Source: Escherichia phage vB_EcoM_JB75. From it: a stretch of 64,000 bases of DNA. This document shows, one piece after another, positions 4,079 to 5,882 of the stretch. The notes beneath the pieces are model-generated. The model was not told the DNA's origin, ran no database searches, and saw only the letters and a program-made list of their open reading frames with translations. Within the stretch, counting starts at the first letter, position 1; every line of letters begins with the position of its first letter. The position numbers were made by a program, and so were the translations under genes. Where the stretch lies: sequence record MH355584.1; one strand, written 5' to 3'.

Positions 4079-4693
4079 ATGAAAATGAAAATGCAAAGTG
4101 ATTTCAATTCAATGTTTGAAGAGTTCCAAAGACAGGTTGATGTTCCAGACCAATTACTAAATGCTCTTAAACGCATGGCAGAAGGACGTAATTACTATTG
4201 GGGGTCTTCATATGAAACTGATGAAAGCCTTTCCGGAAGATTTTCTAGAGGTAAAAAGTCTTTAATACGTCCTGGAATACTCATTAACAGTATTGAATCA
4301 ATTCATTCATTGACATGCGATTTTGATGTTGAATTTACTGATTTCATTTCTCCTGAATGGACGGTATGTTATTTAAACGACGATTTTGATTATCTCGGTG
4401 TTTATAGTTTAAGTGACGCATGGTTTAAACGTAATTTACAAAAGTCAAATTTATTCTATATTGATACTACAGTAAAATTTCAGGGAAAGAAATATTTCTT
4501 TACTCTTATAGTTGATTCTGAAACGAAGCATGAAAATAAACGTATTCTTAGTAAAAGAAATATCTTGAATATTGTTGATGATCTTTTTGATAAATTAGTG
4601 GAAAATCCTAATTTTGAAAGTGATTTATTACTAGAAAAATTTGTTAAGGAATGTAGAGAATATGTCAAAACCATCACTATACCTTCCAAGTAA
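4079..4693 (+). CDS. Hypothetical protein (204 aa)
   Basis: ORF with RBS GGAG; C-terminus KFVKECREYVK resembles the C-terminal motif of the three following ORFs. Confidence 0.6.
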   Translation: MKMKMQSDFNSMFEEFQRQVDVPDQLLNALKRMAEGRNYYWGSSYETDESLSGRFSRGKKSLIRPGILINSIESIHSLTCDFDVEFTDFISPEWTVCYLNDDFDYLGVYSLSDAWFKRNLQKSNLFYIDTTVKFQGKKYFFTLIVDSETKHENKRILSKRNILNIVDDLFDKLVENPNFESDLLLEKFVKECREYVKTITIPSK

Positions 4694-5054
4694 ACCGTTG
4701 AAGTATGAATTAAAGCGTCAGATAATTTCTACTGATGTGTTAATAGGTCCTGTTATACTCATATCATTTGTAATTCTATTGATTATTGGAGGTGTTTTAG
4801 ATGTTATGACTGATATTGATTCTGGCGAAATACTTGTGTTAATGCTAATTCTTCCATTAATAGTTCCACTTTTATTAGTACCCGTAAATTGGGTAGGATA
4901 CTGGTATCAAGGAAGGCATTATCGTAAACGCGTACGTGATTGGAAAGCACAGTGTAAAAAGATTAAAAAGGAACATCAGCTTAAACTTGCTGCGCATGAA
5001 TTTGATGAAATTATGAAATTTGTTAAGGAATCACGATGCAAAAGCCAAAACTAA
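4662..5054 (+). CDS. Small membrane protein, tandem paralog 1
   Basis: Two hydrophobic helices; C-terminal FVKESRCK motif; start chosen at internal ATG, uncertain. Confidence 0.5.
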   Translation: MSKPSLYLPSKPLKYELKRQIISTDVLIGPVILISFVILLIIGGVLDVMTDIDSGEILVLMLILPLIVPLLLVPVNWVGYWYQGRHYRKRVRDWKAQCKKIKKEHQLKLAAHEFDEIMKFVKESRCKSQN

Positions 5055-5398
5055 ATAAAGTCAAATATTCGTTTCCAGAGGCACTATTAATTCTTGCCGT
5101 ATCAGCATTTGCAGCTCTTGCAGGTAGTCTTATTGGATTGTTAATTGATTGTTTTATTTTAAACATCGACGGCACAGTAATTATAACAGAGGTTTGGAGT
5201 GAACTTCGTTTTACTATAGCGATTTCATTATTTTCATTCTTTGGTACCATGTTATATTTTCATTATGATAATTTTAAAATAAATTGGCAAAGAAAAAAGG
5301 ATTACAAAATACAATTAAAAGAATATAATAGCTACATGTCTTATATTGAAAATGAGTCAATGAAAGAGTTTGTGAGTGATTGTAGGAAAATTAAATGA
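5036..5398 (+). CDS. Small membrane protein, tandem paralog 2
   Basis: 120 aa; hydrophobic helices; C-terminal EFVSDCRKIK. Confidence 0.55.
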   Translation: MQKPKLNKVKYSFPEALLILAVSAFAALAGSLIGLLIDCFILNIDGTVIITEVWSELRFTIAISLFSFFGTMLYFHYDNFKINWQRKKDYKIQLKEYNSYMSYIENESMKEFVSDCRKIK

Positions 5399-5513
5399 TT
5401 TTAAAAACTCGCTGGTATGATTTAGATGATGGGGATGATGGCATTTCAGTTGATAGAGTTGACTGGAATGGTTGTTCCGAAGATATGAAAATTTGTTGAT
5501 TAGGGAGTTTAGA

Positions 5514-5878
5514 ATGGGATATCAAGCAGCTAAGCCATTTACTGTAACAGATGATAAGTTCGTATGTATTCAAAACGGTCGCGCTAAGTTAACGAATGCT
5601 GATTGGTTCACAGATAAGAAGGTTCTTCTGTGGTATATCATTAGTCTTCCTATATCATCGTTCGTATTTTACTTTTTTATAAAAAATCCAATGGACAGAA
5701 TAGGAGATTGGGTTCTTTTAACTATACTTGTTAATATTTTTACAGCAGCAGTATTATCAGGAATATGGCGTATGTTCATTGAAATGCCATGGCGTTTACG
5801 CAGACAACAAAAGATTTTTGATGAAAAGAAATATACTCAAAATTTAAATAACTTTATCACTGAATGCAGGAAATTAAA

Positions 5879-5882
<4 letters not shown>
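5514..5882 (+). CDS. Small membrane protein, tandem paralog 3
   Basis: Start at ATG after RBS GGGAG; hydrophobic helices; C-terminal [10 protein letters not shown]. Confidence 0.55.

Follow-up and report, generated by a model that had tools for sequence, protein, structure and literature searches.

Four consecutive early genes of Escherichia phage vB_EcoM_JB75, e.5, e.4, e.3 and e.2, encode proteins that end in the same short peptide, with the consensus [E/N]-x-F-(I/V)-x-(E/D)-C-R-(K/E), and the codons of this tail partly encode the ribosome-binding region of the gene that follows. The genes lie in a stretch of 64,000 nucleotides (nt) from record MH355584.1, which is called the window as a whole and to which all positions refer unless another locus is named. 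We consider it moderately probable that C-terminal tag, ribosome-binding site and recombination site are combined here in one element. Paralogy of the bodies of e.2, e.3 and e.4 is not demonstrable by the sequence comparisons made.

The window is a Tequatrovirus (T4-like) genome, and the 3.5 kb surrounding the tail-bearing genes are 92-98.5% identical to hundreds of Tequatrovirus genomes. The block consists of the following open reading frames (ORFs), with lengths in amino acids (aa):

4079..4693, plus strand: e.5, 204 aa; soluble, no hydrophobic segment; C-terminus KFVKECREYVKTITIPSK; PHROG 2607, E=3e-109.
4662..5054, plus strand: e.4, 130 aa; basic N-terminus MSKPSL; C-terminus KFVKESRCKSQN; PHROG 2604, E=1e-70; Pfam PF26873, precomputed on homologues.
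5036..5398, plus strand: e.3, 120 aa; basic N-terminus MQKPKL; C-terminus EFVSDCRKIK; PHROG 2330, E=1e-57.
5395..5882, plus strand: e.2, 162 aa in relatives, here split into 5395-5499 (34 aa) and 5514-5882 (122 aa); PHROG 2203, Pfam PF26896.
5879..6319, plus strand: nudE, Nudix hydrolase (Pfam NUDIX, E=3e-13); last gene of the overlapping block.

Here e.5, e.4, e.3 and e.2 are orthologues of the T4 genes, with 92-100% identity to many Tequatrovirus records. The assignment holds on full-length family-profile matches (PHROG E 1e-54 to 3e-109) and on synteny from e.6 to nudE; the order e.6-e.5-e.4-e.3-e.2-nudE-e is the same in the window and in relatives (ASO78A and the T4 annotation, with PHROG profiles). 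Annotation and profiles also bear out the location just upstream of nudE and e that had been given in the first-pass annotation, an earlier reading of this DNA. When hydrophobic segments were scored by Kyte-Doolittle hydropathy, the helices claimed there for the ORFs at 4662, 5036 and 5514 were recovered. Two clear ones are present in e.4 (about 4737-4799 and 4830-4904, followed by a basic C-terminal domain) and in e.2, where a soluble N-terminal part of about 75 aa precedes them (about 5622-5681 and 5709-5780). In e.3 one helix is strong (about 5081-5161) and one moderate (5210-5266), the latter being clearly hydrophobic in the Gaprivervirus orthologue. Unlike these three proteins, e.5 has no membrane helix by hydropathy.

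The tails that had been picked out in the earlier reading, KFVKECREYVK in e.5 and FITECRKLK in e.2 together with those of e.4 and e.3 listed above, all fit F-(V/I)-x-(E/D)-(C/S)-R. In a six-frame translation of the window, F[IVLM]x[ED][CS]R was observed six times versus 0.68 times in shuffles, and four of the six are those of the consecutive genes, 3-11 residues short of their stops. With the tail written as a degenerate DNA pattern, three matches were found versus 0.01 expected. When the complete T4 genome was scanned with a relaxed motif, limited to ORFs of at least 50 codons and to positions no more than 15 residues from the stop, there were exactly four occurrences, in e.5, e.4, e.3 and e.2. 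A chance or low-complexity origin of the motif is ruled out by the shuffle, DNA-pattern and T4-wide statistics and by those of the DNA repeat described below. An IMG/VR scan for DNA encoding exactly FIKECRK-stop found just four stretches, every one of them in T-even contigs.

The tail is not confined to one kind of protein. When e.5 was searched by tblastn, 643 phage records matched, 502 at 80% identity or more and 141 below 60%; the matches that were checked belong to Tequatrovirus and Mosigvirus. In Gaprivervirus and Dhakavirus-like phages the e.5 slot (5637-6191 in VR25, our locus L013, and likewise in loci L014-L021) holds a protein of 154-184 aa that resembles T4 e.5 only in a tail of 10-12 residues, FI(K/A/T)ECREYAK. 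FIKECREYAK versus FVKECREYVK is the only similarity between the Gaprivervirus protein and T4 e.5, and their comparison gives p=0.002 with the tail and p=0.8 without it. Since the tail is found both on the soluble e.5 and on this unrelated Gaprivervirus protein, it is a module independent of the gene body. Further carriers are a two-helix protein of 101 aa and e.2-like proteins in Mosigvirus, in fDHCT2 and in Dhakavirus-like contigs. In all, proteins that are otherwise unrelated share this short terminal peptide, namely e.5, e.4, e.3, e.2, the Gaprivervirus protein of the e.5 slot and one more protein of Mosigvirus. The two-helix carrier ends in NFIKECRGK and the e.2-like carriers (163-197 aa) in RFITECRNLR, EFIKECRK or SFIKECRK (L012 8852-9157 and 9845-10336; L006 3006-3599; L022 1193-1780). 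In the e.2-like carriers the N-terminal domain is conserved, and the membrane part comes in two or more forms that look unrelated.

The codons of the tail differ synonymously among Tequatrovirus, Mosigvirus, Gaprivervirus and Dhakavirus-like loci and the peptide is kept, with Arg encoded by AGA, AGG, CGT, CGC or CGA, Cys by TGT or TGC, Phe by TTT or TTC and Ile by ATT or ATC. Within Tequatrovirus variation is greatest in the membrane helices, and the cytoplasmic ends hardly vary. The tail peptide is shown to be under purifying selection at the protein level.

A second tail family was observed between e.3 and e.2 in Mosigvirus, Gaprivervirus and Dhakavirus-like phages, in the form of a tandem array of three to six small soluble proteins of 65-101 aa (L005 4069-4863; L013 6862-8112; equivalents in L011 and L012). 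The array proteins all end in W-(V/F)-x-S-S-x-x-C-stop followed by TAAGGAA..ATG, so that a conserved tail is again fused to the Shine-Dalgarno sequence of the next gene.

At the DNA level, consecutive genes from e.5 to nudE overlap by 32, 19, 4 and 4 nt, and the tails lie at the junctions:

4637..4664, plus strand: junction A1, e.5 tail TTT GTT AAG GAA TGT AGA (F V K E C R, 4640-4657); Shine-Dalgarno UUAAGGAA; e.4 ATG at 4662; repeat copy 1.
5016..5038, plus strand: junction A2, e.4 tail TTT GTT AAG GAA TCA CGA (F V K E S R, 5019-5036); repeat copy 2.
5369..5398, plus strand: junction B1, e.3 tail TTT GTG AGT GAT TGT AGG AAA ATT AAA TGA (F V S D C R K I K stop).
5853..5882, plus strand: junction B2, e.2 tail TTT ATC ACT GAA TGC AGG AAA TTA AAA TGA (F I T E C R K L K stop).

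Two junction types can be distinguished. Type A (TTTGTTAAGGAAT..ATG), at e.5/e.4 and e.4/e.3, begins with a 16-nt repeat, AAATTTGTTAAGGAAT, which is followed by 5-10 nt and the ATG. The two exact copies of this repeat, at 4637-4652 and 5016-5031, form the longest direct repeat in 3400-6400, and 16 nt were reached by one of 300 dinucleotide shuffles (P≈0.003). Type B, TG(T/C)AGGAAA(A)TTAAA(A)TGA, is found at e.3/e.2 (5381) and e.2/nudE (5865). The repeated TG(T/C)...ATG unit that had been proposed for the junctions is thus a fair description of type B, but not of the two type A junctions. The accompanying claim, that the tail codons partly encode the ribosome-binding region of the next gene, agrees with our results: at each start the best anti-Shine-Dalgarno pairing falls inside the tail (-4.2 to -6.1 kcal/mol at a spacing of 5-10 nt). 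The Shine-Dalgarno sequence is either UUAAGGAA, from the (I/V)-K-E codons, or U/CAGGAA, from the C-R-K codons, 5-10 nt before the ATG. At junction A2, UUAAGGAA stands 5 nt ahead of the e.3 ATG (5036). The sequence is UAGGAA at B1 and CAGGAA at B2, and the e.2 ATG at 5395 and the nudE ATG at 5879 overlap the preceding stop as ATGA. The block has the geometry of a coupled operon, in which starts overlap or sit inside the upstream gene and the Shine-Dalgarno sequence lies in upstream coding sequence.

In Tequatrovirus the e.3 and e.2 tails have S-D or T-E in place of K-E and are two codons longer, and therefore AGGAAA takes over as the Shine-Dalgarno sequence. The e.5-slot genes of Gaprivervirus and Dhakavirus-like phages have their Shine-Dalgarno sequence, AAAGGGGU or AGAGGUU, downstream of the motif and still keep FI[AKT]ECREYAK. 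Peptide and ribosome-binding site are superimposed yet, to judge from these loci, separable. The retention of the peptide where the Shine-Dalgarno sequence sits elsewhere argues against a purely RNA-level explanation. Rfam gave no match on 3000-7000. Promoter-like sites are at chance level (22 versus 20.3 in shuffles), and the only hairpin, at 4040-4061, is upstream of e.5. As regards nudE, an in-frame ATG further upstream at 5864 (MQEIKMKTL..., 151 aa) is annotated as the start in many records including T4, and the start at 5879 (146 aa, ATGA overlap) fits the junction pattern and the Shine-Dalgarno sequence better.

The junctions are also the places where genes have been lost. In T2, in an IMG/VR contig (L008), in T4_ev151 and in at least 20 phage records e.2 is missing and e.3 is joined directly to nudE. 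The hybrid tail reads ...GATTGC AGGAAATTAAAATGA, with the breakpoint inside the shared TGCAGGAAA, so that junction B2 was the right-hand partner in the recombination that removed e.2 in T2. The hybrid junction is carried by two e.3 alleles, FVSDCRKLK and FVIDCRKLK, and the e.3/e.2 junction is retained in 434 records. T4_ev151 was considered as a laboratory-evolved T4 that had lost e.2, and this was rejected: its gene order differs from that of T4, so it is apparently not a direct derivative. As e.2-like genes occur upstream of nudE in fDHCT2 and in Dhakavirus-like contigs, with one 78-aa ORF between, and a more diverged one occurs in a Mosigvirus contig, the state of T2 looks like a loss.

The e.4 ORF is precisely missing in six Dhakavirus-like (JS98-like) loci, three of them with a variant e.3 N-terminus; Gaprivervirus keeps e.4. 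In the aligned loci L014 and L018 the missing stretch extends from the e.4 ATG to the e.3 ATG, and the breakpoint falls in the repeated Shine-Dalgarno sequence and ATG, GAGGTTCAAAATG. Products of recombination-deletion with breakpoints inside repeats are present in T2, L008 and L029 and in L014-L018 and L020. In UFV09-type phages the e.4 N-terminus is fused in frame to the e.2 C-terminus at a microhomology in the first membrane helix. Each of the three membrane-protein genes has been lost or damaged singly: e.2 is truncated in T4 and the window and missing from T2, JS98-like phages have no e.4, and in L012 only a remnant of e.3 is left. Copy number, for which a check in related phages had been suggested, does vary, as losses of e.2 or e.4 and one fusion, but no inserted cassette was seen. 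Tails co-vary by lineage: in Tequatrovirus e.5 and e.4 have KFVKE and e.3 and e.2 have CRK[IL]K, and in Gaprivervirus FIKE is found in e.4 and e.3, also in e.5 of VR25. This lineage-wise co-variation suggests possible gene conversion between junctions. Other kinds of damage were also noticed. The e.3 remnant of the Mosigvirus contig L012 was produced by an internal deletion (6590-6700), e.5 is split by a frameshift in the Tequatrovirus contig L008 (5636-6251), and the e.5-slot gene of the Dhakavirus-like contig L017 has an internal deletion (5643-6107).

In the window itself e.2 is interrupted. The ORF at 5514, which the first-pass annotation had treated as a gene of its own, is the 3' part of e.2, which starts at 5395; the first ORF matches positions 1-32 of PHROG 2203 and the second positions 47-166. 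The cause is a 1-nt deletion:

5488..5491, plus strand: e.2 frameshift site, AAAA here versus AAAAA in ASO78A (alignment).

A 62-nt query across this site had no exact match among 251 matching phage records, and the best matches (98.4%, 63 nt long) are consistent with one extra base; the allele of the window is therefore either a private mutation or a homopolymer sequencing error. In T4 a different A-run is frameshifted (L002, about 3100-3120), leaving a product of 102 aa without the second membrane helix and the tail, so that the 1-nt deletions in T4 and the window are independent and lie in two different A-runs. A programmed frameshift was rejected because the window allele is private and located in a homopolymer. 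Public data contain clusters of proteins with 102 aa and with 122 aa, which suggests that e.2 is repeatedly called in truncated form.

How could one short peptide come to stand at the end of four otherwise dissimilar early proteins, one soluble and three predicted to be membrane hairpins with both ends in the cytoplasm (N-in/C-in)? By the positive-inside rule the tails would be cytoplasmic, and the terminal helix is predicted to be amphipathic, with F, I/V and C on one face. The tail is most likely a common address tag, which would dock effectors that are interchangeable, and of which each can be dispensed with, to a single shared partner or site at the inner membrane. The docking function specifically is put forward only tentatively. 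In its most concrete form, possible but doubtful, the proposal is that F-(I/V)-x-E-C-R-K can be transferred between proteins as a C-terminal address tag and that its carriers, namely e.5, e.4, e.3, e.2 and the Mosigvirus and Gaprivervirus proteins, all dock to a single target, of host or phage origin, on the cytoplasmic side of the inner membrane. As the genes of the block are tightly packed and their stops and starts overlap, AAGGAA (Lys-Glu) or AGGAAA (Arg-Lys) doubles as the Shine-Dalgarno sequence of the next cistron, and the sequence features make translational coupling of the block probable. The junctions, 15-25 nt long, would be substrates of the phage's short-homology recombination, by which whole cassettes could be deleted as precisely as the observed products show, and recombination probably homogenises junctions within a lineage. 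The tail coding sequence would then be a crossover site too, and new effectors could be added or removed as cassettes that are in frame and ready for expression. As each carrier can be lost singly (e.2 in T4 and T2, e.4 in JS98-like phages, e.3 in L012), an obligate hetero-complex is less likely than an address tag.

Several points weigh against this explanation. The tail is not strict: the Cys of e.4 is shifted by two positions (ESRCK, EIRCK) and is lacking altogether from Gaprivervirus e.4 (EVRNGTA). Dual coding, through overlapping starts and Shine-Dalgarno sequences, and gene conversion at the junctions can account for part of the conservation. Laboratory T4 lives without the e.2 tail, and what suggests translational coupling is geometry. 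AlphaFold2 gave a pLDDT of 38 for e.5 from the single sequence and of 52 for e.2 with 19 close homologues; neither model is fit for a fold search, and although the e.2 model is helical through residue 160, at such low confidence the models support the helical nature of the tail weakly. No family library gives a function for e.2-e.5, and no partner, localisation or phenotype is on record for them.

The earlier reading had seen in the locus the serial tandem duplication of a small membrane-protein gene. In a form that allows for long divergence, e.4, e.3 and e.2 would be tandem duplicates whose membrane cores have drifted past recognition, the junction being held by the next ribosome-binding site. 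The three genes are adjacent and share a layout, with a basic N-side, two helices in an N-in/C-in arrangement and a basic C-terminal domain, and the in-frame e.4/e.2 chimera of UFV09 is viable. In addition, e.4 and e.3 are alike at both ends, through the tail and through the start M-x-[KR]-P-x-L. This pattern, defined after the data were seen, is found only in these two among 1333 Met-initiated open frames in T4, and owing to it the similarity of the junction DNA extends about 18 nt beyond the ATG into the next gene. The bodies were compared with orthologues of e.4, e.3 and e.2 from Mosigvirus (JS09, L011, L012), Gaprivervirus (VR25), Dhakavirus-like contigs and fDHCT2. With multi-lineage alignments, hhalign linked E3 with E4 at 89.5% (42 columns) and E2 with E3 at 85.6% (14 columns), but only via the tail; the full E3-E4 score, 40.3, was above all 100 column shuffles (28.5±4.1, maximum 40.0). 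The similarity vanishes when the tails are removed. Tail-trimmed hhalign probabilities across the families were 23%, 0.8% and 0.2%, with scores within the column-shuffle null (E3-E4 25.4 versus 22.8±3.5). Tail-less Smith-Waterman comparisons of e.2, e.3 and e.4, three lineages each, stayed inside windowed-shuffle nulls, with p mostly above 0.3 and a minimum of 0.04 without correction for multiple tests, versus z = 5-26 for orthologues. With Tequatrovirus-only alignments, in which diversity is too small (Neff ~1.2), hhalign detected nothing beyond the tail. When e.3 was searched exhaustively by phmmer in a set of 1.84 billion representatives, the matches were five relatives at E<=1e-3, namely four e.3-type proteins and one weak match to a repetitive protein of 421 aa, and neither e.4 nor e.2. 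Serial duplication, which depended on similarity beyond the junctions, is therefore not supported as stated, tail-less e.2, e.3 and e.4 showing no significant similarity. Duplication also fails to explain the tail on the soluble e.5 and on the unrelated Gaprivervirus protein, and e.2 has an extra N-terminal domain of 75 aa and lacks the MxKPxL start. The diverged form of the duplication reading is rather unlikely for the three genes, and e.4 and e.3 may be an old duplicate pair, given their similar ends.

Two other readings dispense with a function of the peptide. According to the first, the repeat is a nucleotide or RNA element only, either a Shine-Dalgarno or coupling element or an operator for a repressor such as RegA, and the peptide is a passive by-product. 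At most junctions the Shine-Dalgarno sequence does lie inside the tail codons at proper spacing, and the junctions are AU-rich near the ATG, as RegA-type targets are. Such an element would not require that Arg be retained through both AGA/AGG and CGT/CGC/CGA codons and Cys through both TGT and TGC, or that F and I/V, upstream of the Shine-Dalgarno sequence, be conserved. Moreover, the Shine-Dalgarno sequence shifts between the K-E and the R-K codons while the register of the peptide is unchanged, it lies further downstream in the Gaprivervirus and Dhakavirus-like e.5-slot genes that retain the peptide, and Rfam is without a match; we regard this reading as very improbable. According to the second, the junctions are selected linkers for modular exchange, a coding counterpart of PeSL (promoter-early stem-loop) cassettes or integron sites, from which inserted genes inherit the peptide. 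Precise cassette deletions at junctions in two lineages, an unrelated body with the same tail in the e.5 slot, lineage-by-lineage homogenisation of junctions and the PeSL precedent (PMC2839356) all favour it. The repeats, however, are very short (9-16 nt of identity), only losses and one fusion were observed, with no foreign cassette inserted between two junctions, conservation of the peptide through synonymous changes is not required by it, and selection for evolvability is a weak force. We regard it as improbable.

The neighbourhood of the block comprises three further features:

3444..4037, plus strand: e.6, 197 aa, without the tail motif; PHROG 1203, E=8e-88; annotated as e.6 in relatives.
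4040..4061: GGGG...CCCC stem-loop between e.6 and e.5, terminator-like; annotated as a rho-independent terminator in ASO78A.
6357-6851: e, downstream of nudE.

The gene e.6 was used as the anchor for fetching related loci, and the stem-loop marks the start of the tightly packed block from e.5 to nudE. A promoter of the T4 early type (TTTACA-N16-TATTAT, with TG upstream) was noticed at 3389-3416, before e.6. For e.2-e.6, sequence searches of Pfam, NCBIfam, PADLOC and PDB gave nothing above threshold, and PHROGs are labelled only 'unknown function' or 'membrane protein'. Public records carry the labels 'sulfurtransferase', 'DNA primase', 'host specificity protein' (e.6) and 'site-specific RNA endonuclease' without support from family libraries. 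For want of such support, and because the proteins are small and predicted to be membrane-bound, the names 'sulfurtransferase' and 'DNA primase' look wrong. The start of e.4 is often missed or mis-called, being unannotated or placed too late in several records (JS09, T4_ev151).

The genes themselves are already known T4 ORFs. The literature searched on e.2-e.5 contained no description of the common tail, of its conservation at the protein level, of unrelated carriers or of its use as a deletion breakpoint. If the tail is a tag, a ribosome-binding site and a recombination site together, a single stretch of 20 nt can act as protein motif, ribosome-binding site and recombination breakpoint, and this triple role would account for the loss, and perhaps the gain, of accessory genes in the hyperplastic regions of T-even phages with no disturbance of their neighbours. 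A common C-terminal peptide under selection offers a concrete handle on e.2-e.5, early T4 genes that are otherwise functionally uncharacterised. If the tail is an address tag, its carriers would form a set of early effectors of T-even phages that had not been recognised before.

Three known systems invite comparison. The block resembles the coupled operons of phages and bacteria in the ATGA at e.3/e.2 and e.2/nudE and in the starts of e.4 and e.3, which lie 32 and 19 nt inside the preceding gene. Ordinary translational coupling, however, places no identical peptide on four successive proteins and keeps none after the Shine-Dalgarno sequence has moved. The second system is that of the PeSL elements, repeated short regulatory sequences at gene boundaries, Shine-Dalgarno sequence and ATG included, which act as crossovers that delete or insert small non-essential genes in hyperplastic regions of the T4 type (PMC2839356); T4 recombination needs less than 50 bp of homology (PMC2839356). 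The cluster from e.5 to nudE shows a similar precise loss of cassettes at repeated junctions. PeSL elements are intergenic, about 100 bp long, and consist of a sigma-70 promoter and a stem-loop, whereas the junctions here are coding and have no intergenic space, no hairpin and no promoter above chance; an intergenic promoter with a GGGG/CCCC stem-loop is found at none of the four. Elements resembling PeSL, the promoter at 3389-3416 and the hairpin at 4040-4061, do bracket e.6, and none lies in the block from e.5 to nudE.

The third system is the capsid-targeting sequence (CTS), a short terminal peptide common to diverse T-even internal proteins (IPI, IPII, IPIII, Alt), which are individually dispensable and encoded in a polymorphic region (PMC3012670). 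The CTS is N-terminal, it is cleaved by the prohead protease and its function in encapsidation is proven, whereas the tail described here is C-terminal and would have a targeting role by analogy only. Unlike the CTS, the tail is borne by early, mostly membrane proteins and overlaps the next ribosome-binding site. Near the block, three ORFs of the window (1939, 6940-7413 and 52506) start with MKTY.EF(I/L/V), and starts of the form MKTY.EF[ILV] are taken by us to be the N-terminal CTS of internal proteins. The ORF at 6940 matches the annotated Ip4 of relatives, and the number of MKTY-type genes downstream of e varies among related loci. What the tail of e.5, e.4, e.3 and e.2 has in common with the CTS is that a short conserved terminal peptide is carried by proteins that are otherwise diverse and individually dispensable.

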